64,000 nucleotides of DNA from Planctomycetota bacterium (GTDB taxonomy: Bacteria; Planctomycetota; UBA8108; UBA1146; JAJFFE01): positions 6,955 to 70,954 of the forward strand of contig JBCCHQ010000008.1 in the NCBI GenBank assembly GCA_039028735.1, given 5' to 3'. A program made the position numbers and the translations under genes. The notes below the pieces were generated by a model, which searched no databases, was not told the origin of the DNA, and was given only the letters and a program-made list of their open reading frames with translations. How positions within the stretch are numbered: the stretch's first letter is position 1; each line of letters starts with the position of its first letter. This document shows positions 2,522-41,972 of the stretch, in pieces.

Positions 2522-2649
2522 CGCTCCCCGTCCACAACCGGGCCGGACGATCGATGGTCACTCCCCCCCGTCGACTTGCAGAACTGCAACGAATCTCACT
2601 TTGAGAACTGCCAACCCCAGCGCGCTACGGCAAGCATTCTCGCAAGAGG

Positions 2650-2677
2650 TTGGCTCTGGCAACTCTCGCCGTACAAT
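2650..2677 (+). promoter_or_regulatory. Sigma-70-like promoter candidate TTGGCT-N16-TACAAT upstream of giant gene
   Basis: Lies in a 237-nt lower-GC leader, ~85 nt upstream of ATG 2759. Confidence 0.35.
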
Positions 2678-2758
2678 TACGGGTCGTACTCTATGGGTCG
2701 AATCATCAGTGCAACAAGATACTCGAACTCCGGGATTCACGTTCCGAGGAGGAGCTCC

Positions 2759-12334: not shown

Positions 12335-12366
12335 GCGCGGCAGGGCCGAGCGGCTACCTAAAAACA

Positions 12367-12416
12367 GAGAACGACGGAACTGCGCGCAGTGCGCGGCTCC
12401 GTCGTTCTCATTTTCA
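12367..12416. terminator. Bidirectional intrinsic terminator between convergent giant gene and 12436..13893 gene
   Basis: Perfect 12-bp stem GAGAACGACGGA/TCCGTCGTTCTC (12367-12378 / 12398-12409), flanked by an A-tract (ctaaaaaca) and ATTTTCA. Confidence 0.7.
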
Positions 12417-12435
12417 CCAAATCAGTACCAGCGCT

Positions 12436-13893
12436 TCAGGGGCAGTTTGCAAACGACAGACAGCCACGTCCTGGGCCACAAGCCGGAAACGGTGCGGCCG
12501 GCACCGGGCCGTGGGCAAACAGGTACATCGCAAGGAAGACTGCGTCAGCCAAGTCCACGTTCACGTCGTTGTTGGTATCGGCAGCGTCATAGCAACCGCC
12601 TGGCACTCCGGCTGCGGCAACCCAACGCGCAACAAAAACTACGTCTGATACATCCACGATGCCGTCATCGTTTGAGTCACCACGCACGAAGTCGACGTTC
12701 GCGGGCACGAGGCAGAAGTTGGTGTTCGGGGCAACGACTCCGTAGAAGATGCTGAGGTCAATCTGCATGGGGCAGATACCCGGGCCCAATCCGACTGGCA
12801 TCCCGATCGCATCAATAGCCACCTGACATGGGCCGATCGGGAGGTTACTGAAGACGTAGTCGCCAAGCGCGCCCGAGACCTGCGTTTCAGTGTAGTCGTC
12901 AGCCGTGCCTAGGATTCCATCGTTGCCAGCACAAGTCGCAACGACCGGGACGCCGGCGATTCCAACTTCGGCACTGTCTTCGACGCCATTGTCGTTCGCA
13001 TCGAGCCAGATCGTGCCGGAGACGTCACCCGAGGGTGGCGTTTGCAAGACGAGCGCCGAGGCCACCCAAGCAAAGGATGACGGCAGATTCGCACCTCCTG
13101 GTGGACCGGACAAGACCTGCACCGACAGAGACGAGACACCAGCGCCGATGGGAACGTCGAGCGCCAAGTGGTCCCATTCCGCACCAGACGTACTACCCAA
13201 CAGATCTGGATGATCCGTGACCACGCCATCTGTTTCGATACGAATCGAGTTGGGACGGTTCGCCTGGACGTCAGCGACGACGACCTGCAACGTCGCGGTG
13301 CGACTGGTTGGCAGCGGCGAGAACAGGAACGACTGTGGTTGGGTCGTGTCCAAAGGCGGTGTGAAGTAGTGAAAAGCCATGTCGAGGCCATCGGTCAAGA
13401 ACAGCTCACTGGCTGTCTGCCCATCATCGACAACGACAAACAGCGACGCGCCGTGTGCGAGAATGTCGAAGTCCAAGCCGGTGATTGCGACGCTATTGGT
13501 TCCCGGGTTCAACGTCACGTTGTTCGTTACGTCTGCACGAAACGCCGAACAATAGGTGCTCGAGAAGAACAGCGTCGGGCCTCCAGTCAAGACCCCCACC
13601 ACCTGCACTCCATTCACGAGCGCCGTGTCATCGCTGCCTGTCACGGGCCCCGTGTGAAAACCAGTCCAGCACAACAGTATCTGCGCCACCGACACGCCTG
13701 TTGGGACCTCGATTTCGATCGTGCTGGCGCCTGAGAGTAAACCAGTCCCGGCGCTGACCAGATCGCTCCCGGCAGCCAGCGGAGTGCTGAGGGGGCCCAA
13801 CGCCTCTGTACCATCCGCGTGAGCCGCGGCAGCAAAGCCCAGACTGAGAACCAGGGCCAGCAGAGTGCGAATGTACGAGTACTGAGGTGCCAT
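12436..13893 (-). CDS. Secreted protein with SdrD-B/Cna-B-like domain and C-terminal dockerin-like module
   Basis: ATG 13893 precedes the signal peptide MAPQYSYIRTLLALVLSLGFAAAAHA (the ORF track uses GTG 13902). An SdrD-B-like segment reads GTIWLDANDNGVEDSAEVGIAGV...TADDYTETQVSGALGDYVF. The dockerin-like tail is 12439..12690 (FVRGDSNDDGIVDVSD...DAADTNNDVNVDLAD...CGPGRGCLSFANCP). Confidence 0.8.
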   Translation of the reverse strand: MAPQYSYIRTLLALVLSLGFAAAAHADGTEALGPLSTPLAAGSDLVSAGTGLLSGASTIEIEVPTGVSVAQILLCWTGFHTGPVTGSDDTALVNGVQVVGVLTGGPTLFFSSTYCSAFRADVTNNVTLNPGTNSVAITGLDFDILAHGASLFVVVDDGQTASELFLTDGLDMAFHYFTPPLDTTQPQSFLFSPLPTSRTATLQVVVADVQANRPNSIRIETDGVVTDHPDLLGSTSGAEWDHLALDVPIGAGVSSLSVQVLSGPPGGANLPSSFAWVASALVLQTPPSGDVSGTIWLDANDNGVEDSAEVGIAGVPVVATCAGNDGILGTADDYTETQVSGALGDYVFSNLPIGPCQVAIDAIGMPVGLGPGICPMQIDLSIFYGVVAPNTNFCLVPANVDFVRGDSNDDGIVDVSDVVFVARWVAAAGVPGGCYDAADTNNDVNVDLADAVFLAMYLFAHGPVPAAPFPACGPGRGCLSFANCP

Positions 13894-14209
13894 TGGACAC
13901 ACTCCGTCCTAGCGCTTTGTAGAGGGATTGCCTGCGAAGAGGGCGCACGGCTTTCGCAATGCTTTGAGAGCGTGCGGTCGCAGCCCAACAGCTTGGCTGC
14001 TGGTTAGACCGTGGCGTGGAGAGGCGCCATCACCCGCTTGCTTGGCGGTGCCAGACAATTTGGGGGATCCATCTTAGCACTCGACCGCAGCAGCCCAAAT
14101 CAAAGCCCGCACGAAGTGACGAGAGCGCAACTTACGAAGCACTCCGCAAACGGCCAGACGAGCGGGATGTGCCCCGGCCAGAACGCCAGCAAAGTCGAAA
14201 CCTGGGGCC

Positions 14210-22489: not shown

Positions 22490-22740
22490 CACCGGTACGG
22501 TTCAGGCGTTAGCTATTGTCTCAGAAGGCGTTGGGACACTCGACGTGAACCAGCTCTGAGCCCGCTGCCCGCTAACGACACCGCGGTCAGCGGCGAATCA
22601 ACCAGTTCGCGTGGCGCCGCCACGGCTCGTTGGATAGAGTCGCTCTCGGGTCGAAATCCTGCAGAGCGATTCTGCAAAACTCGAGGTTCCTGGGGTCCCC
22701 CAGCAGAGAGCGCTGTGCATCACGCACAGTAGGAGATGTC

Positions 22741-23598
22741 ATGTTCAAGTTGTCTTGTGCGCTCACAGCGGTGGCAGCGATGTCGCTCCTTGCAGCACCC
22801 TGCTACTCGCAAGGGGCCAGCGCTTCGTTCGCCTTTCCTGACCGCGAAGTGCCAGTGACCGGCACGTTCTTCTGCGACCTGGCGATTACCAACGATACGG
22901 ACCTTCAGGGGTTTCAGACATCGATCACTTGGGATCACACACAACTCGAGTTCCTGAGTGTGACCGGGATCGGCACGGATGCGGAAGCCGCCCTGTTCGC
23001 CGTCAATCCCAGCTTGATGCTTGGTTGTGAACCGTACGAGTTCTTCCTACCTGTTACCGTAGGCCCGATCGCGGCGACCAATCGATCGCGGCAACTGACA
23101 GGAGTCGTCTTCGACTTCGTGCCACCGTTCGGTAGCGTGGTGCTGGCGCCGGGTACCGACATGACCGCTTTGCGCTTCCGTTTCGAGTCGATCGGCGGCG
23201 CCCTGGGCGCAACGACCGACTTGCTGTTCGACACTGCACCTGGAGACAATTCTGTCATCGTACAGGGTTTGTCGATCATCGTCGGGCTCGATGACGCGAC
23301 GCTGACGTTCTCAGAACCGTTCCTGCGCGGCGACACCGATGGCGACGGCACCGTGAATCTCGTCGACGCGATCTTGGTGTTGAATTACTTGTTCAACAAC
23401 GGCGTGGCTCCGACCTGTCTCAACGCCGCCGACGCCAACGACGACGCGACTACGGGTATGATCAACACGGCCGACGCGGTCTACATACTCAGCTATCTCT
23501 TCAACGCAGGGGCCACGCCGCCGGCGCCTTTTGGTAGCTGCGGGGCGGACCCAACCCCGAGCCCGCTCAGCTGCGGCGGGCCAACGGCATGCCCGTAG
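22741..23598 (+). CDS. Secreted protein with N-terminal cohesin-like module and C-terminal dockerin-like module
   Basis: AGGAG lies 5 nt before ATG 22741. Signal peptide is MFKLSCALTAVAAMSLLAAPCYSQG. A cohesin-like core reads VPVTGTFFCDLAITNDTDLQGFQTSITWDHTQLEFLSVTG. The dockerin-like tail is 23320..23595 (FLRGDTDGDGTVNLVD...DAADANDD...CGADPTPSPLSCGGPTACP). Confidence 0.75.
   Translation: MFKLSCALTAVAAMSLLAAPCYSQGASASFAFPDREVPVTGTFFCDLAITNDTDLQGFQTSITWDHTQLEFLSVTGIGTDAEAALFAVNPSLMLGCEPYEFFLPVTVGPIAATNRSRQLTGVVFDFVPPFGSVVLAPGTDMTALRFRFESIGGALGATTDLLFDTAPGDNSVIVQGLSIIVGLDDATLTFSEPFLRGDTDGDGTVNLVDAILVLNYLFNNGVAPTCLNAADANDDATTGMINTADAVYILSYLFNAGATPPAPFGSCGADPTPSPLSCGGPTACP
22816..23319 (+). other. 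Cohesin-like module (type-I cohesin signature G-x-x-x-x-I-x-[YW]-D-x-x-x-LE-[FI]-[LI]-x-V-x-G)
   Basis: The segment GFQTSITWDHTQLEFLSVTGIG aligns with the clostridial cohesin motif GIANCDFVYSYDPNVLEIIEIEPG. Confidence 0.5.
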
Positions 23599-23619: not shown

Positions 23620-24681
23620 TTACGGACAAACCGGCGCGCAGCCGCTGGTCGGCTGGCAGTTCATACCGAGAACGTGCGGGGGTCCCGCGCTGAACGACCA
23701 GGCGATCAGATGAACGGCGTCAACGAGGTCGACAGAGTTGTCGCCATTCGCATCGAGAAGCATCAGGTTGTTGCCCTCGTTTGCAGAGGCCGAGTCGCAT
23801 GGCAACACCTGCTGTGTTACGCCAAACAGATAATCCAATAGCGAAACAGCATCGCTCAACCCAACAGCGCCGTCGGTGTCGAAGTCGCCCGGAAGAAAGT
23901 CGCCGCCGCGCGTGCCAACGATCTTCAGCAGCGACTGCTGCTGGCTACCAATCGCTGCTCTCGTTTGGAGGCAGATCGTCGCAGTGAAGTTGTCGGCATC
24001 GTGAAAAATCACTTCGCCGACAGTATCGCGCGGGTGGTTCGTGACGGTGCCTGCGTACGTAGCGTAGCTCGGAAGCCAGCCGGTGACGGTGTTGTTGATC
24101 ACTCGAATTCCGACATGATCGTTCGCGAAGAACAAGCCCTCGAAGAAGATACCATTGGGACGAGCAAGACGGAGCTTGTTGCCAGTAATCGTCAGGGTGA
24201 CCGTCTCATTGAACGTCGCGTTGACGGCACCGCTCTGCGGGTTGAGTCCTTGGGTCACGGCATCGTAGTCACCGCTGCGTGCGACGTCACCTGGAATCGC
24301 TGCGCTCGGCAGCTGCGTCGGGAAATTGACAGTAGTCCCTGGGCACCGAGTGCAGTTGTACAGGTAGCCGGCGCCATTGCCGACTTGCGTCGAGAATGCG
24401 TCGGGCCCCGTGAAGCTACCCGGAAACTGACCAGAGATCAGAATCGCACCACCCGGCCCGATCGTCCCGTTCCAGCCAAAGCCAAAGAAATCTCGCAACT
24501 CGTACTGATTGCCGGACACGTGGAGCACCGAGAACCACTCGGTGAATGTCGTTGGATTGCCACCTTGGGTGTTTTGCATATAGTACATGCCACGCGGGTT
24601 GATTTGCGCCGTGGCCGGCGGAGCTCCCACTAGCAGAAAGCAGCCCAGCAGGGCACCTATCGTCCAACTTCGCCGTTGCAT
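23620..24681 (-). CDS. Secreted protein of unknown N-terminal fold with C-terminal dockerin-like module
   Basis: Start at the ATG giving MQRRSWTIGALLGCFLLVGAPPATAQ, with GAGGAG 7 nt upstream. The dockerin-like tail is 23623..23898 (FLPGDFDTDGAVGLSD...DANGDNSVDLVD...CQPTSGCAPVCP). Confidence 0.75.
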   Translation of the reverse strand: MQRRSWTIGALLGCFLLVGAPPATAQINPRGMYYMQNTQGGNPTTFTEWFSVLHVSGNQYELRDFFGFGWNGTIGPGGAILISGQFPGSFTGPDAFSTQVGNGAGYLYNCTRCPGTTVNFPTQLPSAAIPGDVARSGDYDAVTQGLNPQSGAVNATFNETVTLTITGNKLRLARPNGIFFEGLFFANDHVGIRVINNTVTGWLPSYATYAGTVTNHPRDTVGEVIFHDADNFTATICLQTRAAIGSQQQSLLKIVGTRGGDFLPGDFDTDGAVGLSDAVSLLDYLFGVTQQVLPCDSASANEGNNLMLLDANGDNSVDLVDAVHLIAWSFSAGPPHVLGMNCQPTSGCAPVCP

Positions 24682-24946
24682 CGCGTATCTCCTCGTTCGT
24701 CGCTCGTATTGGCGCTCGTTTTCCAGACCTAGCCAGGCACCAAACATAGCAATTCGGAGGGCGTACCAACAATGGCAGTTGCACGCAACTTCATGCGTGG
24801 AATGATTCAAACACAGGAAAATGGGCCAGCGGCGTCGTAGAAAGCGGACAGGCTTTGCCCGCGGTCCACGGCGCAACGGACACTCTGTCGAGAGCGATCC
24901 AACCAACACGGCGCGATCAACGCGCCGCGAGAGGACCTATCACCGT

Positions 24947-27811
24947 ATGAACCGTCAATTCACGGCACGAGCGATCGGGTGCGGGTTGGCACTGACCTTC
25001 ATGTATCTTGCGCTACCGGCGGCAACTTACGCCAACAACGCTGCGCTGCAGAGGCTGCAGGAGGCCTACCCAGGAGTACGCGTCCTGAGACTCGAGGACC
25101 GCATGGCGATCTACGGTAAGCCCATGACTCGCGCGGCGACGCCCGACGCGGCCGCGGCGGCGTGGTTGGCCAACCACTCGCAGACCTTCGGTGTACCGGG
25201 ATTGGATCTACGTTTGCGCCGCAGCTACGATCTCCTCGGCAACGGTCTGGTCGTCTATCACTACGAGCAATGGATCGGCACGACGGCCGTCGAGTACGGC
25301 GCCGCTCGCATCGCCGTGCGCCCTGGCCCAGACGCGGCCGCCGTCGTCTACGCCGCAGCAACGTTGGCGGAGATCCACGACGAAGCGCTGGCACCTATCC
25401 GTATCAGCAGTGACCAAGCCTCGGCAATCGTCGCAAAGCATCGCTTCTTCGGCAATCTCGAGGAGTACTCGACACCGCAACTGTCGATCATCAAAAGCTC
25501 ACCGGTCCTCGACTCGGAAGGCGCACCGCTGCCGCGCCGTACTTGGCGCCTGACGGGCAGCGACTCGTCACTGACGCAGCCTCGCGCGTTCACGTTTCAC
25601 ATCGACGCGGAAACAGGCGCTCTCCTCGAGGCTCGGTCTGAGATTCACAATCTCGATGTCTCTGGCACGGTGAGTGGCTTGGCAAGCCCCGGCGACCGTC
25701 CAGACACCGCGGCGAACCCTCCGGTCAGCGTGCCGTTGGCGTCTGCCGAAGTGGCCATCGGCGCCACGACTGCAATCAGCGATGCCGCGGGTGCGTTCAC
25801 TGTACCGTTCGGCGGCACCGGCGCAGTGAACGTCGACGGCGTGCTGCGCGGCCCTTGGGTCGAGGTCCTCACGCAACAAGGTACGCCCGTCACGACAACG
25901 CTACTGGCGACACCACCGGGACCTGCGAACCTACTTCTCAACGACACACCATCGGAGTTCACGACGGCACAGGTCAACGCATTCGTGCACGTCAATCAAG
26001 CGCATGACTTCTTCGCGCAACGGGCGCCAACTTTCACCGACATCGATATTCCCCTTCCTTGCACCGTCAACGTGCCTGGCAGCTGCAACGCATCGTTCTC
26101 GAGCCTTTCGATTTCGCTGAGCTTCTTCGCCGCAGGAGGTGGTTGCGAGAACTCATCGTTCTCTGACATCGTCCAACACGAGTACGGTCATTTCGTTGTC
26201 AACCGCATTGGCCTGGCCCAAGGCGCCTTCGGGGAAGGCTTCGGCGACACGCTGTCGTTGATCTTCGCCGACGACGCGCAGCTGGCTGAGGATTTCGGTG
26301 GCCCTGGAACGGTGGGTCGAGACATCACCGGAGACAACGTCCAGTACCCGTGTCCCAGCACCGCAATTCACTTCTGCGGGGAGCTCCTCGCAGGTTGCTG
26401 GTGGGACCTCCGCGTCGCGTTGGGTGCCAGCTTGGGTAGCGCAGCCGGGCGTGACCTCGCGCAACAGTTGTTTGCGGACTGGAGCCAGCTCACCTTGGGT
26501 GGCAGCGGTTTCAACAGTGCGCACCCGATGACTGCCATCGAGTACATGATGGTTGACGACGACGACGGCAACATCGACAACGGCACCCCTCACCGCGACG
26601 ACATCTGTCTCGCATTCTCGAATCACAGCATCGACTGCCCAATCCTCCCACCCATCCTGTTCGAGTTCCCACTGGGCCTCCCGACGATGGTCAGCCCGGC
26701 AGCCACGACGACCGTTCAGGTCAGCATCGTCGAAACCACCGGAACATTGGTGCCTGGATCCGAGCGCGTTTGGTGGTCGTTGGACGGCTTCAACTTCACC
26801 GAAGGACAGCTGACCGCCCTGGGCTCGGGACTCTACGAGGGCACGCTGCCGGCAGCGATGCAGTGTGGCCGCTACCGCTACTACTTCTCGGCTGACTTGC
26901 TCGGTGGCGGGACCGAGTTGTCCGCGCCACAGCTCCCCCACTCGTTGACGGTCGCAGATGGGTTCACGGAGCTGCTGTTCGATGACATGGAAACCGACCC
27001 CGGGTGGACGGTTGGTGCGCCGACCGACACCGCGACCACCGGAATATGGACGCGCGACGATCCCATCGGCACAACTGCGCAGCCTGAGAACGACCACACC
27101 CCGACGGGCACGCTGTGCTGGTTCACTGGCCAGGGAACGCCCGGCGGCGCTCAAGGCGAGAATGACGTCGATGGCGGCCCCACCACGCTGGTCTCACCCA
27201 GTATCGATGCAACCCAAGGCGAGACGCGCATACAGTTCTATCTCATGTATGCAAACTCTACCGGCAACGCACCGAGCTCGGACGTGTTCCAGATCGAGAT
27301 CTCCAACTCTGGCGTGTTGGGTCAGTGGATACCCGCGCTCACGCTGGGCCCCGATGTCTTCTCGTTGCTTGGAGTTTGGCAGCTGTACGAACTTTGGGTC
27401 TCCGACTACGTCACACCGACGAATACGGTCCACGTTCGCTTTCGAGCCCGCGACGATGCTCCCGGATCCATCGTCGAGGCTGCACTCGATGACCTTCGCG
27501 TGGAAGTGGTCTTCTGCGACTCGACCCCATCGTTTCGTCGCGGTGACTGTAACGACGACGGCGGGGTGCAGATCGCGGACGCAGTGTTCTTGCTGTCGGG
27601 TCTGTTCGGCGGAGTAGGACTGACACCGCCATGTGCAGATGCCTGTGACGGCAACGATGACGGCAACCTCGACATCGCTGACGCTGTCTTGATTCTTGCT
27701 GCGTTGTTCTCAGGTGGTGGCCCATTGCCTGATCCAGGTATGGACAACTGTGGTGCTGACGCGACAACTGGCGACACTCTACTCGAGTGCGCGGGAGCTA
27801 CCTGCCTCTGA
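24947..27811 (+). CDS. Secreted zinc metalloprotease (HExxH: VQHEYGHFV) with C-terminal dockerin-like module
   Basis: ATG 24947 gives the signal peptide MNRQFTARAIGCGLALTFMYLALPAATYA. The HEYGH motif is at ~nt 26180. The dockerin-like tail is 27533..27808 (FRRGDCNDDGGVQIAD...DGNDDGNLDIAD...CGADATTGDTLLECAGATCL). Confidence 0.8.
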   Translation: MNRQFTARAIGCGLALTFMYLALPAATYANNAALQRLQEAYPGVRVLRLEDRMAIYGKPMTRAATPDAAAAAWLANHSQTFGVPGLDLRLRRSYDLLGNGLVVYHYEQWIGTTAVEYGAARIAVRPGPDAAAVVYAAATLAEIHDEALAPIRISSDQASAIVAKHRFFGNLEEYSTPQLSIIKSSPVLDSEGAPLPRRTWRLTGSDSSLTQPRAFTFHIDAETGALLEARSEIHNLDVSGTVSGLASPGDRPDTAANPPVSVPLASAEVAIGATTAISDAAGAFTVPFGGTGAVNVDGVLRGPWVEVLTQQGTPVTTTLLATPPGPANLLLNDTPSEFTTAQVNAFVHVNQAHDFFAQRAPTFTDIDIPLPCTVNVPGSCNASFSSLSISLSFFAAGGGCENSSFSDIVQHEYGHFVVNRIGLAQGAFGEGFGDTLSLIFADDAQLAEDFGGPGTVGRDITGDNVQYPCPSTAIHFCGELLAGCWWDLRVALGASLGSAAGRDLAQQLFADWSQLTLGGSGFNSAHPMTAIEYMMVDDDDGNIDNGTPHRDDICLAFSNHSIDCPILPPILFEFPLGLPTMVSPAATTTVQVSIVETTGTLVPGSERVWWSLDGFNFTEGQLTALGSGLYEGTLPAAMQCGRYRYYFSADLLGGGTELSAPQLPHSLTVADGFTELLFDDMETDPGWTVGAPTDTATTGIWTRDDPIGTTAQPENDHTPTGTLCWFTGQGTPGGAQGENDVDGGPTTLVSPSIDATQGETRIQFYLMYANSTGNAPSSDVFQIEISNSGVLGQWIPALTLGPDVFSLLGVWQLYELWVSDYVTPTNTVHVRFRARDDAPGSIVEAALDDLRVEVVFCDSTPSFRRGDCNDDGGVQIADAVFLLSGLFGGVGLTPPCADACDGNDDGNLDIADAVLILAALFSGGGPLPDPGMDNCGADATTGDTLLECAGATCL

Positions 27812-27905: not shown

Positions 27906-28769
27906 TCAGTCCGTTGCGGGAATGACAAACCACACCGGATCCCCCTGAGAACCAAGCTCACCAAGATAGGTGCGGCGAACGAACTTGCCGTTCTCGTCTT
28001 TGACCGGATCACTCTCGACTTCGACGAACGCCGCAAAGGGTACCTCGAGGTGCAGTCCCATCTCAGCCAAATCTAGCGAGACTTCGTACTGGCGATGTGG
28101 TTGCAGCGTGCTACGACCCCGAGCTTCGCGATAGATGCGCCAGTCGCTGATCGCATGCTTCTTCCAGCGCTCATGGTCCTTGGTCGCCGGAGCTCCAGAC
28201 CACGTCACGTTGGTTTGACGGATACCGCCCAGCCGATCATCACGGCCGCGTCCTAGGTGAATTCGTTCGTTGACGATCGCCGAACACAGATCGGGATGGA
28301 TGTAGAAACGAAACTGATCGTAGCCGAGCTCAGTCTGATCTTCGGGGACGTCGCAGCCAAGGTACAAGCACTCACCATCCGAGAGTAGCCGGAGCGTCGT
28401 ATGCTCTCCGAGCTGCAGCGGCGTCGCGTCAGCCCAGACATCATCGCGCAAGCGACCGTCGATCTGCGGAGCAACGTCCAGCCGGGCGATCGACAGCACA
28501 GTAGCGCCTGGCGGCGATTGCTGTCGGCGCGACAGTTCCGATCGTAGCTCCTTGATGCGCTGTTCTTCCGGGAACTCCTGATAGCCCTTCGGAAGGCCCG
28601 GAGCGCTCTTCCACGCCTGATACGCGGTGTTGGCCAACTTCTCTTGGTAGGTAGCCTGCAGTTGACTCGCGAGTGCATGCGCACTCGGCTCCTGGAGCAT
28701 CCAGTAGCCACATATCCCAGCCAACAGCGCGACGACAGCCAATCGTAGATTCCGGCTCATCGAGGTCAC
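27906..28769 (-). CDS. Secreted hypothetical protein (possible CBM9/DOMON-like beta-sandwich)
   Basis: Signal peptide MTSMSRNLRLAVVALLAGICGYWMLQEPSAHA. The domain assignment is a guess. Confidence 0.6.
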   Translation of the reverse strand: MTSMSRNLRLAVVALLAGICGYWMLQEPSAHALASQLQATYQEKLANTAYQAWKSAPGLPKGYQEFPEEQRIKELRSELSRRQQSPPGATVLSIARLDVAPQIDGRLRDDVWADATPLQLGEHTTLRLLSDGECLYLGCDVPEDQTELGYDQFRFYIHPDLCSAIVNERIHLGRGRDDRLGGIRQTNVTWSGAPATKDHERWKKHAISDWRIYREARGRSTLQPHRQYEVSLDLAEMGLHLEVPFAAFVEVESDPVKDENGKFVRRTYLGELGSQGDPVWFVIPATD

Positions 28770-29062: not shown

Positions 29063-31099
29063 ATGGACCCTGCACTCAAAGTTGTCTTTCGCCCGGTCGC
29101 CGCGTGGCACGAGCACCGGTCCCCTGCCAGCGCACTGCTGCAGGCAAGCGACCCGGCGCTACACGACAACGTCAGTCTCGCCGCGTGGCAGCACGGCCTT
29201 GCTGGTCTTGAGACTGGAGATGCAGTGACAACGCTGGTCGTGCCGGCGCAGCCCGTGTTCGACGACATGCTGGCTGTGTGGTTCTTGACGTGCCGCGAGC
29301 CGAGCGAGATGGATACAGACGTCGCCCAGACGCTGTGTCGCTACGCTCGCATGTGCCGTCACGGAATCCCGCAGGCGAGCGTCCCGGTAGAAGCGAGCCC
29401 GCGAAACATCGCAGAAGAGGTACTGCGCCAGTTTCCCGACCTTGCCAGCGAAGACCAGGCCAGTGCTTATCAACAACGGTGCTGGGCGCTGTTCGACTTC
29501 CTGGAACAACGCCTCGTTGCTGGCGCCGACTTGTTCGGGAACGAGTTGTTTGAGGGTCCTCACGACTTCCAGGAAGAAATCGCTCTCCTCAGTCACGACC
29601 AAAGCGTCTATGCCGAAGACCTGCTCCGTGGCGAGGTCTGGACCGGTCAACTGCCACAGGGCACTGCGACAAGGGACGTCAGCCTGCTGGTTCTCGAAGT
29701 CCCTCTGAGCAACCGTTGCGCGGATTGGGCGCGGCGCGATCCGAACGCCCCCGGGGGGAGTGGCTTCCCACTGCTGCTGTTGCGCTGGCCAAATGGCGAG
29801 TGGGTGCTCACGGCGGACCCAGCCAGGCGTCTCAAGGTCGGGTTCCTCGCCGCCCCTCTACAAGCCGTAGAAGACCAGAAGCGCGGGCGAGACCGGCCGC
29901 CCACAGACGATACCGACATCTGGTACGACGGAAGTCGCCATCGCAGCACCCTGGTCGCTTCCCCTCGTAGCGGCACTGTGCTCGAACGAGAAGATGTGAT
30001 CGCGGTCTTGAAGGAAGCCCTGCACCTTGTTGCTGCCAGCGACGCGACAATGCCAGAAGCACATCCTCCGCAAGCGGATCGCCGATCAAGAGTTTCGCCT
30101 GTACGAGGCCCGCTTTTGGCCGCAGCCGTCGCCCTCCTACTTGCCGTCCTGGGCTTCTTCTTCTGGCCCGGCGAGCCTGCCACCGACACCGCCTCCACGG
30201 CGCCGTGGCGCGATGCGGCCCGGGCGCAAAGACGTGGCCTCTCGATCGCTGGCGAAGGCGCAGACGCACCACCGTTGGCCGAAGTCGTCTACGAACGTTG
30301 TTGGGCGGTGCTGGTCGGGATCGACAACTACGTCGACTCGGCGATCCCGACGCTCGAGTACGCCAGTCGCGATGCGCGCGGCGTCGAGGCTGTTCTGCGC
30401 AAACGTTACGGGTTCGACGACGCCACGGTCACGGTGCTGCTGAACGAGGAGGCGACTCGCGAGGGAATCTTGCAAGCGTTCGGAGCGCTCAAGGAGAAGA
30501 TCGGCCCGGATGACTCACTGCTCGTGTTTTGGGCTGGCCACGGCACCGCTGAGAGCATCGGCGGCAACGACGAAGCGCTGGGCTACCTCGTGCCGCACGA
30601 CGGCACAATGGAGCGGGCGACAGCGATGTCGCGCAACATCACGATGCGCAGCTTGCGCGATGACGTGCTGAGGTCGATCCGGGCCAAACATCAGTTCGTA
30701 GTCCTCGATGCCTGCTTCGGAGGCCTATTGGCCAAGAAGCGGAGTGTCGGCGAACTGACGCGCCAGGATCAGGAGTACGTGTTGAGAATCGCCAAGAAGC
30801 CAATCTCGTACGTCCTCACAGCGGGCGACGCCCAGCAAGAAGTGCTCGATGGCGGCTACGGTGGGCATTCCGTCTTTGCAGGGCATCTGATTCGGATACT
30901 CGAGCAGGTGCAGGGCTTTGCAACCGCCACCGAGATCGGTCCAGCGATTCGACGCCTGGTGGCCGACGACGCCAGCGAGCATGGGCACCAGCAAACGCCG
31001 GTCTTCGGCGCGATCCGCGGTGACGGTGACTTCGTCTTCTTGCCGCGCCCCCTGGCCGCGGAATCCTCGAGCGGCGACAGCTCCCAAACTGGGCAGTAG
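29063..31099 (+). CDS. Membrane-anchored caspase-like (peptidase C14 / caspase-HetF fold) protein with ~370-aa N-terminal domain of unknown function
   Basis: GGAG lies 5 nt before the ATG. A single TM helix reads LLAAAVALLLAVLGFFFW. The His/Cys dyad context is LLVFWAGHGTAESIGG ... HQFVVLDACFGG. Confidence 0.8.
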   Translation: MDPALKVVFRPVAAWHEHRSPASALLQASDPALHDNVSLAAWQHGLAGLETGDAVTTLVVPAQPVFDDMLAVWFLTCREPSEMDTDVAQTLCRYARMCRHGIPQASVPVEASPRNIAEEVLRQFPDLASEDQASAYQQRCWALFDFLEQRLVAGADLFGNELFEGPHDFQEEIALLSHDQSVYAEDLLRGEVWTGQLPQGTATRDVSLLVLEVPLSNRCADWARRDPNAPGGSGFPLLLLRWPNGEWVLTADPARRLKVGFLAAPLQAVEDQKRGRDRPPTDDTDIWYDGSRHRSTLVASPRSGTVLEREDVIAVLKEALHLVAASDATMPEAHPPQADRRSRVSPVRGPLLAAAVALLLAVLGFFFWPGEPATDTASTAPWRDAARAQRRGLSIAGEGADAPPLAEVVYERCWAVLVGIDNYVDSAIPTLEYASRDARGVEAVLRKRYGFDDATVTVLLNEEATREGILQAFGALKEKIGPDDSLLVFWAGHGTAESIGGNDEALGYLVPHDGTMERATAMSRNITMRSLRDDVLRSIRAKHQFVVLDACFGGLLAKKRSVGELTRQDQEYVLRIAKKPISYVLTAGDAQQEVLDGGYGGHSVFAGHLIRILEQVQGFATATEIGPAIRRLVADDASEHGHQQTPVFGAIRGDGDFVFLPRPLAAESSSGDSSQTGQ

Positions 31100-31157: not shown

Positions 31158-32894
31158 CTACGGGCACACCGAGTTCGTACAGGTCAGCAGGTCCGGCGTC
31201 GGCTCCGTCGCACACAGCGGAAAGGGCGCGATCGGTTGCGGCGCCAGGCCGAACAGGGCCTGAATCGAAACCACGGCATCGGCCACCGTCAAAGCCCCAT
31301 CGTCGTCGGTGTCACAAGCGCTTTGGCATGGCGCGCTGCTTCCCAGGAACAACACCTGCAAAAGGTAGGCGGGATCCGAAATGTCACGGATCAGGTCCGA
31401 GTTACAGTCACCGCGAACGAACTTAGGCGGCGGCGGCTGTTGCGGCCGCAAGTCAGCGACGCGCAGGAGGTGGTCGGACGCCTCGGAGTCAGGCGCCTGC
31501 AAACCAGCGGCGCTGAGCACAGCACTCGACATTTCCGGCGTGTACAGCACATAGTGATTCGCCGGTGCGACCACGGAGTCTGAATAGATCACGAAATCGA
31601 GCAGCCCGGGCCAGAAAGAAGAATTGTCATTGCGCCACGTGTAGGCCATTCGCTTTTCGGTTTGCGACGAAACGAGATTCACCAAGCCGGTGCCATCCCA
31701 ATCCAAAGCGACGTCCGCACCATACGTTGCTTCGTCAGCAACATCGCCAGTCAGCAGCGACGTCAACGTTGACGACAGGCCGACAAGATTCAGATCCCCG
31801 ACAACGACGATCGCGGTGTCAGCTGCGATCGTCAGGGGACCACCGCTGGCTTTGGCATCACGCACGAACGCCAAGATCTCGTCTACTTCGTCCTGCCGCC
31901 CAGTCTCGTTGCTGCAACAGGGCAAATGAGCGTTGATCAACAAAAGCTGCTGACCCAGCACCGCTGTCGTGTCCACGAGAACAGCCAGATTCCCCGATAG
32001 CGACCAAGACCCGAGGATCGCGTAGCGACTCACAACGATGCAGTCGTTGTTGTCGGCAGCCGACCAAACAGCACCACTGCCTGCATTGACCCAGGTTCCC
32101 ACCAGCGACGCCGTCTCTGCCGCGGTGTGATTGTAGATCTCTTGAAAACACCAAATGTCAGCGTCGACGGCCGAGAACTGGCGACCAAAGCGTGGTTCCT
32201 CGCCCGGGTCCCAAGGAGAATCGTTGTGCACGTTGTAGGTGGCGATGCGGAGGTCACTGGCTTGTTGACGTCCAAGTGGGATCGGTGCGGGCGGCACAGC
32301 GGTGCCTTGATCCATCGTATAGACAACGCTGCCGGTATTGGGAAGCTCATCCCCGGCACCGTCTTCGTCGCGCAAGATCAGACGCACTTGTGTTCCTGAA
32401 AACAGCGGCTGGGCGCCGTTGGGAAGCGTATCGCGACCGATACTCACCTCAAACCACGACGACGACACTGTCGGGCCCGAGCGTAGGCGTAGATCATCGT
32501 GAAACAGTGTGCTCCCGCCGCCGACATGAAACGTCCCGGTGCGGCTCCCGAAACGCCACTCGAGCTCTGCACCGATTCCGCGCACAGGCAGACCCGTCGC
32601 AGAGTTCATGTCGGTGTCGAGGTAGAGGACGAGATCGTTCCCCTCGTCGAGTTGGCTCTCGATACCCAGTTCCAATCGCAGGAACAGGAAGCGGGCATCG
32701 TCTGCAACGCTCAAGCCTGCAAAGTCCAATCCCGAGGGACCGGCGTCACCAGCCCCGTCGGTATGGGCCGGTAGCACCCCACCCCAGTCGAGATCACGGC
32801 CATCGACTTGGATCGGGTGTTGTTCTCCACAGGCATTTCCGCCAATGGCGAGGACAACCAGGAGCACGGTAAATGCAAGGTGTTGCGTCGACAC
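31158..32894 (-). CDS. Secreted endonuclease/exonuclease/phosphatase (EEP)-family protein with C-terminal dockerin-like module
   Basis: GTG start with signal peptide MSTQHLAFTVLLVVLAIGGNACG. The EEP motif is LRIATYNVHNDSPWDPGEEPRFGRQFSAVDADIWCFQEI. The dockerin-like tail is 31161..31421 (FVRGDCNSDLIRDISD...DTDDDGALTVAD...CATEPTPDLLTCTNSVCP). Confidence 0.8.
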   Translation of the reverse strand: MSTQHLAFTVLLVVLAIGGNACGEQHPIQVDGRDLDWGGVLPAHTDGAGDAGPSGLDFAGLSVADDARFLFLRLELGIESQLDEGNDLVLYLDTDMNSATGLPVRGIGAELEWRFGSRTGTFHVGGGSTLFHDDLRLRSGPTVSSSWFEVSIGRDTLPNGAQPLFSGTQVRLILRDEDGAGDELPNTGSVVYTMDQGTAVPPAPIPLGRQQASDLRIATYNVHNDSPWDPGEEPRFGRQFSAVDADIWCFQEIYNHTAAETASLVGTWVNAGSGAVWSAADNNDCIVVSRYAILGSWSLSGNLAVLVDTTAVLGQQLLLINAHLPCCSNETGRQDEVDEILAFVRDAKASGGPLTIAADTAIVVVGDLNLVGLSSTLTSLLTGDVADEATYGADVALDWDGTGLVNLVSSQTEKRMAYTWRNDNSSFWPGLLDFVIYSDSVVAPANHYVLYTPEMSSAVLSAAGLQAPDSEASDHLLRVADLRPQQPPPPKFVRGDCNSDLIRDISDPAYLLQVLFLGSSAPCQSACDTDDDGALTVADAVVSIQALFGLAPQPIAPFPLCATEPTPDLLTCTNSVCP

Positions 32895-32904
32895 GGTCCT
32901 ACGC

Positions 32905-34413
32905 CTAGATCCCCTTGTCCGTGGAGTAAGTGCGTTGCATGAAGCTCTGCCACTCTTCCTCGAACTTGTTCATGTTCAGGCGACCGAACGTAACACGATA
33001 CGCTTCGGCCCCTGTCTTCCCCTTGCGGATCGATTTGAAGTATTCCTTCAGCGCCTTTTGATACTTGCGGTTGCCACCCTCGATACAGAAGTAGACCACT
33101 GCCCAAGCCTGGCAGTAGTGCTGGTACATGCGCTTGTTCTTGTTGCGCATGTCGTACATCTCTGCCTGTGACATGTTCATCAACTCGGCGACTGTCGGTC
33201 GCGGGATCTTGCGATTGAGGATTGTGATCATGAACTTCAGACGATCCGCGGCCGGGCGAATCTTCATGACTCGACGGTTGCCCTTCTTCACCAGTTGCGA
33301 AGCGGAGAAGTAGTCGGCCAACCCTTCGTTGAACCAAGACGGGATGTTGTCGAGGTACTCGTGGCAGTACTGGTGAAAACCCTCGTGTTTCAACGTAATC
33401 AAGGTCTTGGCCATGTCCGGCTTCTTGAACAACATGATGCGCCGCGCCAGCGGCCAATAAACACCCCCGGAGTTAGCCGGCGCGCCCGCCCGCACATAGC
33501 TTTCACGATCGCCGAAAATCATGATCAAGTACTTACGATCCGGTTTGGCAATGTCGGGGAACACGCCGTCGTAGAGCTCGCGCACCAGCTCGACTGTCTC
33601 GGAGAACTCCTGAGCTGACGCCTGAGATACGTTCGTCTTAATGATGTAGTTTTCGCTCTCGACGACAAACGTCTCGCCCCAGTCTGGGTCCTTGGTTGCA
33701 AACTCGATTGCCTGGCGGCACTGCTCCCGCATGGGATTCGTGCCACGCGACAACGCGCGCTCGAGATAGGGGCGTGCGTCCTCGAAACGTCCCAACTCGA
33801 CCAAGACCATCAGAATGCGATCGACGCCATACTCATAGTGCGGATAGATGTCGAGCGCTGCCTCGTAGCGCGGGATCGCGTCTTCGCGCTTGCGCTGCCA
33901 GACATCGACGTCGGCCAGTTCGACGTAGGCCTCGTAGAACTCGGGGGCCGCCTTGATAACTTTCTTCAGTTCACGGCGCGCTTTCGGATAGTCACGATCC
34001 CACTGATACAGGATTCCCAGGTAGTACCCAGGAAGCGCAGAAGTTGCGTTCATCTTGCGCTGCAGCTTCTTGAACGCACGGATCGCGTCCTTGCGCGGTT
34101 CTTCTTTCGTGTAGCGACGCCGGGCCTCGGCATACAGCTTCATCGCGGCGACGAAGCGCTCCTTGACATCCGGCTCGATCGAATCGGGAAGGCTCAAGTT
34201 GTCGGCCGGCGGCGGCGGAATCTCGACCTTCTCCTTCTTTTCCTCTTCGTCGCCGTCACCCGTCTTGTCCGATTCAGTAGCCTCTTGCGGCGTGGCAACG
34301 ACGCCTTCCAGAACGGGCGGTACCGCGGGCGCGGCTTGAGTCGCTAGGACGCAGATTGCAACTGTGACCCAAGCCAGGGCCCAGAACTTCTGCGGGAGCA
34401 CGAACTGCGGCAT
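32905..34413 (-). CDS. Secreted TPR-repeat protein with DUF1570-like HExxH (HEGFHQ) putative peptidase-like domain
   Basis: GGAGG 6 nt upstream. Signal peptide MPQFVLPQKFWALAWVTVAICVLATQA. TPR-like helices and LKHEGFHQYCHEY are present. It lies 10 nt upstream of the EEP-dockerin gene (co-directional). Confidence 0.7.
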   Translation of the reverse strand: MPQFVLPQKFWALAWVTVAICVLATQAAPAVPPVLEGVVATPQEATESDKTGDGDEEEKKEKVEIPPPPADNLSLPDSIEPDVKERFVAAMKLYAEARRRYTKEEPRKDAIRAFKKLQRKMNATSALPGYYLGILYQWDRDYPKARRELKKVIKAAPEFYEAYVELADVDVWQRKREDAIPRYEAALDIYPHYEYGVDRILMVLVELGRFEDARPYLERALSRGTNPMREQCRQAIEFATKDPDWGETFVVESENYIIKTNVSQASAQEFSETVELVRELYDGVFPDIAKPDRKYLIMIFGDRESYVRAGAPANSGGVYWPLARRIMLFKKPDMAKTLITLKHEGFHQYCHEYLDNIPSWFNEGLADYFSASQLVKKGNRRVMKIRPAADRLKFMITILNRKIPRPTVAELMNMSQAEMYDMRNKNKRMYQHYCQAWAVVYFCIEGGNRKYQKALKEYFKSIRKGKTGAEAYRVTFGRLNMNKFEEEWQSFMQRTYSTDKGI

Positions 34414-39629: not shown

Positions 39630-41972
39630 ATGACTACACTCGCGACAGAACAGCTGCTGGCTGCGATTGCTGACTACCACGCCAGCGTCTATCGCGTTGC
39701 CTATCGCACTCTTCACAACGCCGCCGACGCTGAAGACATGGCACAGGAAGCGTTTCTCCGCCTCTGGCGCAGCGACCCTCCCCCCGCTCGGGCAGCGCTG
39801 CGTGCGTGGCTGGTGCGCGTCACCCTCAACCTCTCGATCAATCGAATCCGCGCCGAACGCAGCCGTCGCAATCGCGAACGAACCTGGTCGCAAGCAAGGA
39901 ACGCTGCCAGCGAGGAGAAGGCGATGGACACCGAGTCCCTAACAGCTGCCCTGGAGAATCTGCCACAAGAACTACGACTCCCGATATCGCTCCACTATCA
40001 CGAAGGGCTCCACTACCGTGAGATCGCGACGGTCCTCGAGTGTCCAGAGGGTACGGTCGCCAGCCGGATCTCGCGGGGGCGACAGGAGCTTCGGCAACAA
40101 CTACGGCTGGCTGGCGTTGCCTTCGTGCCGACCACGCTGGACGCTTCTCTGCAAAGTAGCTCCCCGGTCGCTGTGCCGACGCAACTGGCCAACCGCATCA
40201 TCGGCAAGCTCGGAGTCGAGCTGCCAACGACCCGCGCCTCGGTGCGTCCCAGCAAGGTCGTCGCTGCCGTGGCTTGTGCCGTCTTGCTCGGCGCCAGCCT
40301 CTGGTGGGCAGCCGTCAGTTCGCACGAAGACGCGAGTCCCAGCCGCTTCGATGTTGCTGGTAACGACACAGCAAGCAACGCACCAGCTCCGCAGAGTCGC
40401 CACATCGGAGGGAGGTCAACGGCCGCGGATCCTCGCGCCCCGCAGCCGGTCGCGGCGGAGGCGCTGCAAACGGGTGCCGGGGCCCTGCAGCCGGTCGGCG
40501 GCGACGCGGTGCCCCGAGACGATCTTCAGGGTCTTCAAGGTCTTCCAAAATTTCCGGAGCTGTCGCTGCGTCCCATCGCACTCCATGTAGACGACGATTC
40601 CAGCGCCACGATCGCAGGTCTTGTTCTCACCCCCGAGCAAACTCCGATCCGTGACGCCCGAGTGCAGGTAGTCGGCAGCAGTGGCGCGACGCCGAAACCC
40701 AACCCGGTCGCCAGCTGCCCGAAAGGTAGCTTCCACATCGCGAGCCTTGGCCCAGGCATTCACGTCGTCGAAGTTGCTGCCGCCGGGTACTGCACCCGCG
40801 TCGTGGCGATCGACACGCAAGACGCAGAGACAACCATCACGCTACTTCCAGCCGCCTCGTTGACGGTATTGGTCGAAGGCGCTAGAGGCACGGCCGGCGA
40901 CACGTTCGCGGAGTACACTGTCGAACTGACAACCGGCGACGGTCGCCGCCACCGCCGCGACTGCGACCACACGGGGACCGCACGGTTCACGACGCTCCCG
41001 GTCGGCCTGGCCACAGCGCGAGTGCTTGCTGGGCGCCGCAACGTCTGGCACGACCACTGCAGCGTAGCCCCTGGCGACTCACAGAAGCGCATCGTGCTGG
41101 GCCGTGGTGCGCGGCTGGACGTGATCCTCGAGGCTGCTGGTTCCCAATCTGAAGACACTCGCGAAGCGAGCCCGCTGCGCCTCAGTGCACAGCGCCGCAG
41201 CCGACCAGGTGCACCTCCGTTCCCAGTGCTGCGCGGCGCAACCTTCTCCACGAAGGAAAACCACTTCGAGTTCAGGGGGCTGCTCCCAGGAACGTACGAC
41301 CTGCTGGTGCTACGCCAGTGGGGCTTCTCGTTCGTCGTAGTTGCCACGGCCACGTTCGAACTACCCAAGCCAACCGCAACCGAGACCGGCGCTGACCTGC
41401 AGGGCTACAGTACCGTGATCGATCTCGCCGCTACTCAGCACCGCGACATGACCTGCTCGGTCTTGACCGGAACTGGCGAGCCTGTCGCCGGCGCCTGGGT
41501 GCGCTTGGAGACAGCAAGCGGCCACGCGGTTATCAACGGCCGCACGGACGCTGCGGGAGGTTACACCGCGCCCAACGTCCCTGACGACACGGTCTCGGTC
41601 GACGTGCACCACCCATCGACAGGCTGGAGCACGCATGCCATACCCGCCGGCGCGGCTATCGTCGAGTGCCGCCTCCCTGCACTGGAAGTGCAGCCTCATG
41701 CAGACACACTCTTCGGCGCAGACTGCGCCCTCTGCTTCGACACACCGGTAACGCTGCGGACGTACTTGCTGGCGCTGCGCAACTACACCGGCGACGAACT
41801 GCAACTCTCCCGCGCGCTTGCAAGCCACCCACGACTCGACCAGTGGTTCGAACCCGGAACCAGTCACCTGCCGTTGGGCTTGGAGGCACTGCTACGCCAA
41901 TTCGACCTCAAGCTGACCCGCGCGCCGGCATTCTCCGGCGGCTTCGTGCTCGACGTCGGTGGATCCAGGTAG
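39630..41972 (+). CDS. ECF sigma factor fused to a long C-terminal extension (TM helix + three CarboxypepD_reg-like beta-sandwich domains)
   Basis: GAGGGAG RBS upstream. Sigma region 2 and region 4 (LHYHEGLHYREIATVLECPEGTVASRISRGRQEL) occupy the first ~170 aa. A TM helix (VVAAVACAVLLGASLWWAAV) follows, then ~550 aa of extracytoplasmic-type domains. Confidence 0.75.
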   Translation: MTTLATEQLLAAIADYHASVYRVAYRTLHNAADAEDMAQEAFLRLWRSDPPPARAALRAWLVRVTLNLSINRIRAERSRRNRERTWSQARNAASEEKAMDTESLTAALENLPQELRLPISLHYHEGLHYREIATVLECPEGTVASRISRGRQELRQQLRLAGVAFVPTTLDASLQSSSPVAVPTQLANRIIGKLGVELPTTRASVRPSKVVAAVACAVLLGASLWWAAVSSHEDASPSRFDVAGNDTASNAPAPQSRHIGGRSTAADPRAPQPVAAEALQTGAGALQPVGGDAVPRDDLQGLQGLPKFPELSLRPIALHVDDDSSATIAGLVLTPEQTPIRDARVQVVGSSGATPKPNPVASCPKGSFHIASLGPGIHVVEVAAAGYCTRVVAIDTQDAETTITLLPAASLTVLVEGARGTAGDTFAEYTVELTTGDGRRHRRDCDHTGTARFTTLPVGLATARVLAGRRNVWHDHCSVAPGDSQKRIVLGRGARLDVILEAAGSQSEDTREASPLRLSAQRRSRPGAPPFPVLRGATFSTKENHFEFRGLLPGTYDLLVLRQWGFSFVVVATATFELPKPTATETGADLQGYSTVIDLAATQHRDMTCSVLTGTGEPVAGAWVRLETASGHAVINGRTDAAGGYTAPNVPDDTVSVDVHHPSTGWSTHAIPAGAAIVECRLPALEVQPHADTLFGADCALCFDTPVTLRTYLLALRNYTGDELQLSRALASHPRLDQWFEPGTSHLPLGLEALLRQFDLKLTRAPAFSGGFVLDVGGSR

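Follow-up and report, generated by a model that had tools for sequence, protein, structure and literature searches.

A metacaspase-like protein of Planctomycetota with a conserved, unannotated N-terminal domain and a predicted extracytoplasmic protease

Bacterial caspase homologues are abundant, and to our knowledge very few of them have a known role, with a cytoplasmic function in cell death or defense mostly assumed. Here we describe a caspase-family protein encoded at 29063..31099 (+) in a stretch of 64,000 nucleotides (the window) from a Planctomycetota bacterium (GenBank assembly GCA_039028735.1, contig JBCCHQ010000008.1, positions 6,955 to 70,954), in which a Peptidase_C14 protease follows a large N-terminal domain (the N-domain) and a single transmembrane (TM) helix. 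The best sequence and fold matches of the protease are the prokaryotic metacaspase-like proteases (orthocaspases, MEROPS C14B, GSU0716 with Protein Data Bank [PDB] entry 3bij) together with AtMC4, AtMC9, Yca1, and TbMCA2, all of which share its fold, its catalytic dyad, and two Asp residues at the S1 position. None of the solved metacaspase relatives, however, carries a conserved and predicted cytoplasmic domain of 335 amino acids (aa) plus a TM helix ahead of a predicted periplasmic protease, as is the case here. In their survey of 671 prokaryotic metacaspases, Asplund-Samuelsson et al. (2012; PMC3501461) found TM helices in ~15% and used the notation "iTMHo" (inside, TM helix, outside) for architectures with extracellular C-terminal domains. 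That survey considered Pfam domains only, so that proteins like this one would appear in it as "TM + C14" with an empty N terminus, and neither the N-domain family nor its fusions to kinases, a cyclase, and trypsin are described there. The protease itself belongs to a known family, has nothing unusual about it, and carries that label in GenBank; absent from the libraries and literature searched are the N-domain family and the conserved way in which it is paired with a predicted extracytoplasmic caspase.

We propose that this is a single-pass protein in which the N-domain serves as a cytoplasmic input module controlling an Arg/Lys-specific periplasmic protease of the metacaspase type, a reading to which we assign a probability of roughly 55%. 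The gene is a complete open reading frame (ORF), from ATG to TAG, that encodes N-domain, TM helix, linker, and C14 protease in a product of 678 aa plus stop, identical over its full length to the NCBI entry "MAG: caspase family protein [Planctomycetota bacterium]". A scan of the gene flanks for promoters and terminators returned nothing exceeding the shuffled expectation. The structural statements below refer to a full-length AlphaFold2 (AF2) model built on an alignment of 100 relatives, with a mean predicted local distance difference test score (pLDDT) of 85.9, which replaced an earlier model from 4 sequences with a pLDDT of 59.9.

The C-terminal domain (aa 413-655; 30299..31027, +) was matched by the Pfam model Peptidase_C14 (PF00656) at aa 413-648 with an E value of 1.3e-17 and 64.8 bits against a cut-off of 21.4, and the match covered profile positions 2-223 of 233. 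The Pfam check suggested in the original prediction also named CHAT (PF12770), for which the 678-aa protein gave no match even at E<=10. The motifs FWAGHGT (aa 489-495) and LDACFGG (aa 548-554) hold His493 (codon 30539..30541, +) and Cys551 (codon 30713..30715, +), both codons verified. In pairwise alignment with AtMC4 (6w8s), His493 pairs with the catalytic His of SGHGT and Cys551 with the catalytic Cys of DSCHSGG, and the AtMC4 mutant entry 6w8r has Ala in the column aligned to Cys551. The original prediction had recognized a C14 protein by its His/Cys dyad, and both parts are borne out: the family match exceeds its cut-off, and the dyad falls on the catalytic positions of AtMC4 rather than outside them. 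Two candidate S1-pocket acidic residues were located in the same way, namely Asp437 (30371..30373, +), aligned to the conserved ND of metacaspases, and Asp549 (30707..30709, +), the D of D-x-C, aligned to the D of metacaspase DSCHSG. Conservation among 100 full-length relatives was 98 for His493, 99 for Cys551, 93 for Asp437, and 99 for Asp549. Given that the dyad and the S1-position Asp residues are conserved across the family, the C14 domain looks like an active, metacaspase/orthocaspase-like enzyme. In metacaspase structures, the equivalents of Asp437 and Asp549 make an acidic S1 pocket that selects Arg/Lys, and because both residues are conserved at these positions, we infer that cleavage with Arg or Lys at P1 would be expected.

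The predicted structure agrees with this assignment, with pLDDT >90 across most of aa 413-655. A Foldseek search of the PDB returned GSU0716 (Geobacter), metacaspases 9 and 4, Yca1, TbMCA2, and the MALT1 paracaspase (E ~1e-11, probability 1.00), and TM-scores of ~0.6 (normalized to target length) to GSU0716, Yca1, AtMC9, and MALT1 place the domain in the caspase-haemoglobinase fold. When a family profile was run against the PDB, metacaspases ranked first (8e-19 to 1e-11, with AtMC4 at 8e-19 and Yca1 at 3e-18), and MALT1 (~1e-5) and a reconstructed caspase-3/6/7 ancestor (0.02) ranked lower. After the catalytic Cys lies a flexible basic loop (aa 559-570, KRSVGELTRQDQ; 30737..30772, +) with pLDDT <50, in which position 560 is Arg or Lys in 74/100 relatives and position 561 is Gly in 61/100; this disordered loop may be an autoprocessing or regulatory site.

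The N-domain (aa 1-335; 29063..30067, +) belongs to a conserved, unannotated family, as judged from profile searches, the AF2 model, and a conservation table. It had been described as a large unknown domain of 370 aa without recognizable motif; the lack of a Pfam match stands, but the domain measures ~335 aa and, far from being motif-less, is part of a large conserved family. When a profile of five N-domain sequences was run exhaustively with HMMER against 1.84 billion cluster representatives (clusters at 50% identity), it returned 957 clusters at E<=1e-3, of which 573 reached <=1e-10 and 256 reached <=1e-30. A word-indexed search with the N-domain profile gave 2 matches compared to these 957, and families this divergent are nearly invisible to such an index. 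A scan of contigs with two short patterns only recovered a single locus. Named members belong to the Planctomycetota (Pirellulales, Pirellulaceae, Planctomycetaceae) or the Myxococcota, and their annotations go no further than "hypothetical" or the partner domain. No match to the N-domain was found in Pfam even at E<=10, no model for it in NCBIfam, PHROGs, or PADLOC, and nothing among PDB sequences with either a 5-sequence or a 100-sequence profile. The ideas that the N-domain is a degenerate caspase or an internal duplication were each rejected (hhalign ~0.2% in both cases).

Over aa 1-330 the pLDDT is mostly >90, and the model shows a four-stranded alpha/beta start, a long helical stretch at aa 66-189, and a C-terminal part with a pair of beta-hairpins, a ninth strand, and additional helices. 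The polar residues with the highest conservation across 152 representatives are D67 (99%), Y94, R99, D179, D186 (100%), R224, D252, E270, D289, and T296, and G101, P214, W222, P253, W287, G290, P301, and G304 are the other key conserved residues; the window protein has the whole polar set as well as G101, P214, W222, and W287. Of these, D67, R99, D179, D186, R224, D252, E270, D289, and T296 are mostly found where a strand of the model passes into a helix. Such junctions are the usual place for ligand binding or catalysis in alpha/beta domains, and the modeled arrangement would fit a ligand-binding or active site. With ~950 clusters, strong conservation, and a confident predicted structure, and yet no entry in Pfam, NCBIfam, PHROGs, or PADLOC, the N-domain makes a tangible candidate for a domain family of its own.

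The partners of the N-domain bear on what it does. We scanned 142 N-domain representatives against Pfam in sets of 70 and 72 and found Peptidase_C14 in 110 (57/70 and 53/72, or ~77%), so that N-domain, TM helix, and C14 form the majority layout, to which the window protein belongs. The minority partners in this census were a Ser/Thr kinase in 9 (5 and 4 in the two sets), a trypsin-like protease in 4 (1 and 3), CHAT in 2, and HATPase_c in 1; a fusion to a class III cyclase (Guanylate_cyc) was found once, apart from the census, and one N-domain member has a TCAD9 conflict-system domain. Kinase and N-domain are joined in either order in P0017, P0021, P0044, P0101, and P0137 (with a pseudokinase-like segment between them when the N-domain comes first), and a cyclase precedes the N-domain in P0124, all without a TM helix. 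In P0146, the N-domain and TM helix are followed by Trypsin_2, and the protein is named an S1-C (HtrA-type) serine protease by its sources; CHAT, too, is linked to the N-domain across a TM helix. A domain shared by such varied enzymes is normally an input or regulatory element, and it is because the N-domain is joined to kinases, a cyclase, a histidine-kinase ATPase, and various proteases that we regard it as a module of this kind. Two unusual arrangements were seen among the relatives. P0073, from a Myxococcales metagenome-assembled genome (MAG), has 1471 aa with Trypsin_2 at aa 99-288, the N-domain at 837-1147, a TM helix at 1151-1169, and C14 at 1211-1405, that is, two different proteases predicted to face opposite sides of the membrane. 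Locus L008 (MAG GCA_030428695.1) has two adjacent convergent genes, 8001-10850 (+) and 11020-13737 (-), each encoding an N-domain, a pseudokinase-like segment, and a Ser/Thr kinase, so that paralogues of the same unannotated domain stand side by side.

The only hydrophobic helix of the window protein lies at about aa 349-370 (GPLLAAAVALLLAVLGFFFWPG; 30107..30172, +; Kyte-Doolittle 2.43), as the original prediction of a single TM anchor had it; the segment is predicted to be helical (AF2 helix 352-365) and its flanks to be disordered. It is preceded by an Arg-rich juxtamembrane segment on the predicted cytoplasmic side (aa 336-348, ...QADRRSRVSPVR; 30068..30106, +), with low pLDDT over 337-349, and is followed, starting with EPATDTAS, by a disordered and predicted extracytoplasmic tether (aa 371-412; 30173..30298, +), with pLDDT <50 over aa 368-402. 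The 15 residues before the helix contain 4 Lys plus Arg and the 15 after it contain 1. The same bias runs through the family: a hydrophobic helix directly follows the N-domain in 121/135 members that have a C-terminal domain, and in these 121 the mean Lys plus Arg count in 15-residue flanks is 4.90 before the helix compared to 2.12 after it, the N-terminal flank being the richer in 108 and the poorer in 3 (Wilcoxon p=1e-19). A signal-peptide-like hydrophobic stretch was absent from all 133 N termini examined. Kinases and cyclases require cytoplasmic ATP or GTP, and their fusions to the N-domain are TM-free in either domain order. An apparent TM segment between N-domain and kinase in P0137 was rejected: the helix in question contains Asp and seems to belong to a pseudokinase. 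In P0146 the place of the caspase is taken by an S1C/HtrA/MarP-like protease, and proteases of the HtrA/DegP/MarP type are typically periplasmic. Given the positive-inside bias, the lack of signal peptides, the TM-free kinase and cyclase fusions, and the HtrA-type replacement, the most likely topology has a cytoplasmic N-domain and an extracytoplasmic caspase. The question of which way the protein faces had been left open; the sequence evidence now points to an inside N-domain and an outside protease, which could in principle meet exported proteins.

Under the proposed mechanism, the protein would sit in the inner membrane as a single-pass protein with its N terminus in the cytoplasm and its C terminus outside, where the ~40-residue disordered tether after the TM helix would hold the protease in the periplasm. 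The N-domain would bind a ligand or partner in the cytoplasm and so control the output enzyme attached to it, which in the protease forms would amount to inside-out control, a cytoplasmic cue governing a periplasmic protease. Oligomerization driven by the N-domain would bring protease domains together and thereby activate them. Caspase-family enzymes are activated by dimerization, as established for caspases and MALT1, and a single helix can hardly transmit anything but a change in association; for these two reasons, oligomerization appears to be the most economical mechanism. We hold more tentatively, and would not be surprised to see it fail, the wider reading in which the N-domain is a new cytoplasmic signaling domain, widespread in Planctomycetota and Myxococcota and perhaps of a new fold, that senses a ligand or partner inside the cell, drives interchangeable kinase, cyclase, histidine-kinase, and (across the membrane) caspase/HtrA outputs, and has as its commonest form an inside-out switch triggering a periplasmic caspase.

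The surroundings of the gene were compared with those of seven other family members. Upstream lies a divergent gene (27906..28769, -) for a 287-aa protein with a signal-peptide-like N terminus. Its orientation and secreted character had been predicted correctly, but the label of carbohydrate-binding-module-like protein found no confirmation, as the product had no Pfam match at E<=1. The convergent downstream gene (31158..32894, -) does encode the endonuclease/exonuclease/phosphatase-dockerin protein that had been anticipated: it has an Exo_endo_phos domain (27.8 bits, cut-off 24.5), and its C terminus is homologous to the dockerin-type ends of three neighbors (E=4e-18 to 2e-14). The gene does stand within a secreted-protein locus, as was originally noted, with dockerin-type proteins encoded all along this part of the window and mixed with genes for YchF, a redoxin, glycosyltransferases, and an extracytoplasmic function (ECF) sigma fusion. 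At the seven other loci the neighbors differ and none has a dockerin annotation; they include tetratricopeptide repeat (TPR) proteins, type II secretion system pseudopilin-like genes, a trypsin-like protein, ParB/RecX, kinases, and prophage-like genes. No shared neighborhood was found among the eight contexts, and a TPR gene directly upstream of the caspase gene was seen only in two closely related loci (L001 and L003). The caspase gene behaves as a stand-alone unit.

Several other features of the window were recorded. Five genes, 12436-13902 (-), 22630-23598 (+), 23620-24909 (-), 24821-27811 (+), and 31158-32894 (-), encode secreted proteins with unrelated N-terminal parts and a common C-terminal module of ~90 aa, in which a dockerin-like EF-hand pair, with F-x-(R/P)-G-D as its first residues, is followed by a Cys-containing tail at the extreme C terminus. 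The last residues of the tail are CP in four of the proteins and CL in the product of 24821-27811, and the module may act as a common signal for sorting or anchoring. The 996-aa product of 24821-27811 combines a weak PepSY propeptide-like match, an HEYGH metalloprotease motif, and the C-terminal dockerin module; its listed start overlaps the neighboring minus-strand ORF over positions 24821-24909, and one of the two starts is probably too early. Two genes downstream of the caspase gene, 32905-34413 (-) encodes a TPR-repeat protein with a DUF1570/Peptidase_MA-like C-terminal domain. The 780-aa product of 39630-41972 (+) has ECF-type sigma-70 regions 2 and 4 at its N terminus, fused to CarboxypepD_reg and SdrD_B-like immunoglobulin-fold domains, and is thus a sigma factor with a long extension that appears to be of extracytoplasmic type. 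A giant ORF of 3252 aa, 2576-12334 (+), lies upstream of the dockerin-protein region.

Several points weigh against our proposal of an N-domain that controls a periplasmic protease from the cytoplasm. The topology call is built on heuristics (hydropathy, the positive-inside rule, and fusion logic), and a few members, e.g., P0045, seemingly lack a TM helix, so that the caspase is not always across a membrane. No conserved neighbor gene indicates a partner or substrate. An enzymatic N-domain, acting as an output instead of an input, would be equally compatible with its many invariant acidic residues. This last point leads to a reading that we consider rather unlikely, in which signals travel from outside to inside in the manner of anti-sigma factors and regulated proteolysis: the periplasmic caspase end, activated by Ca2+ or envelope damage, for example, would sense or process, and its activity or self-cleavage would alter the state of an N-domain that is the output and possibly an enzyme. 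Bitopic signaling proteins (the anti-sigma factors RseA and RsgI, ToxR-like regulators, and PknB-type kinases) do have the same order of N-terminal cytoplasmic domain, one TM helix, and extracytoplasmic C-terminal domain, and such proteins pass information through their single helix, usually via a change in oligomeric state. They differ from the present protein in that no sequence relationship was found and in that its outside domain is a protease and not a ligand-binding sensor. The NCBIfam "antisigma" model (NF052375) did match weakly, over the juxtamembrane/TM region only, with 17.7 bits that fall far under the cut-off of 100. The enzyme-like set of invariant Asp, Glu, and Arg residues and the conserved basic residue in the flexible loop beside the catalytic Cys, a possible autoprocessing site, would also suit outside-in signaling. 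The TM-free partners of the N-domain, namely kinases, a cyclase, and a histidine-kinase ATPase, are typical outputs, however, and an input role for the N-domain fits them better.

A further point for an enzymatic N-domain is its weak fold resemblance to DHH phosphoesterases. In Foldseek searches with the confident full-length model, the PDB results were dominated by caspase matches, and the best named non-caspase match in a viral library was a Pithovirus "DHH family phosphohydrolase" (probability 0.69). The top match of a poor model of the N-domain only (pLDDT 59.9) was the yeast exopolyphosphatase PPX1 (2qb6; E=2e-3, probability 0.72, TM-score 0.23), a DHH enzyme, and the strand-loop-helix VVPAQPVFDDML (P-x-x-D-D) is similar to DHH motif I. 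Compared with PPX1 and MYG1, the N-domain has a motif I-like P-x-x-D-D but differs in lacking the DHH motif, and TM-scores are ~0.2. The similarity failed every sequence test. A 152-sequence N-domain profile gave an hhalign value of 0.24% with PPX1 compared to 0.03% with reversed PPX1, and MYG1, suggested by the motif resemblance, gave 0.06% and was rejected. None of the Pfam DHH, DHHA1, DHHA2, and MYG1 models appeared among the recurrent families in 70 N-domain members at E<=10, and no His is conserved at >=80% across 152 N-domains, so that a DHH motif is absent. The second Foldseek match, 6mtz, was rejected as a MYG1 relative, as MYG1 does not match it at E<=1, and no paper found in a literature search mentions this entry. 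We treat the DHH resemblance as a tentative hint of a possible fold relationship.

It is improbable, in our estimation, that the protein is a stand-alone effector of defense or programmed cell death, an abortive-infection or stress-suicide module whose N-domain would sense an invader and whose protease would destroy envelope proteins. The PADLOC "caspase" model matches (E=4e-18), although this match reflects the generic caspase fold only, and the top-scoring named NCBIfam subfamily is the EACC1-associated caspase NF047832, whose 76.1 bits (42-74 bits on eight other family members) stay below the cut-off of 140. Caspase, CHAT, and trypsin are interchanged on the same N-domain, one member of which carries TCAD9, and protease-effector defense modules (EACC1-, MBL-, and Pepco-associated; bioRxiv 10.1101/2025.11.14.688446; Kaur et al., eLife 2020, PMC7159879) likewise swap caspase and trypsin on a common partner, the swapping being reported for defense modules in the first of these. 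Those modules are cytoplasmic, whereas the protease here is predicted to be periplasmic and its partner is fused in cis with the membrane between them, so that the protease could not cleave this partner from the same side. There is also no STAND/Avs-type sensor here, no EACC1-like or other known effector gene adjoins the caspase gene in the window, related loci gave no candidate for an EACC1 effector, and the eight contexts examined share no recurring defense genes. A maturation protease dedicated to the dockerin-bearing secreted proteins around it, the functional tie raised in the original prediction, seems very unlikely. The protease would face the periplasm, and at least five neighboring secreted proteins have the dockerin-like module, with a conserved Arg-Gly start (F-x-RGD) in four that could suit an Arg-specific enzyme; against the tie speak the varying neighborhood at the seven other loci, the gene orientations (divergent from one neighbor and convergent with the other) that preclude cotranscription with them, and the scatter of dockerin-type proteins over the whole window rather than just beside the caspase gene. 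The reverse topology, with an exported N-domain and a cytoplasmic caspase, receives very little credence from us. Many metacaspases of prokaryotes do reside in the cytoplasm. Cyanobacterial forms that are anchored in the membrane but keep the protease inside the cell are also on record (PMC3501461). Set against this are the signal-peptide count of zero and the strong positive-inside bias, the fusion of the N-domain without a TM helix to ATP- or GTP-using kinases and cyclase, and the fact that no route is known for exporting a folded N-terminal domain of 335 aa without a signal sequence.

In summary, our analysis favors an N-domain that would act from the cytoplasm on a metacaspase-type protease outside it. 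If this is true, the protein would be an intact periplasmic metacaspase controlled by a conserved cytoplasmic domain, and a caspase-family protease triggered from the cytoplasm and acting in the periplasm would represent a mode of envelope proteolysis that is undescribed in the literature searched. The sequence-based topology call is a directly testable prediction, and the fusion partners of the N-domain offer several independent routes to learn what it senses. Such a system would point to regulated proteolysis of the envelope or surface in Planctomycetota and Myxococcota, phyla known for their complex cell biology.

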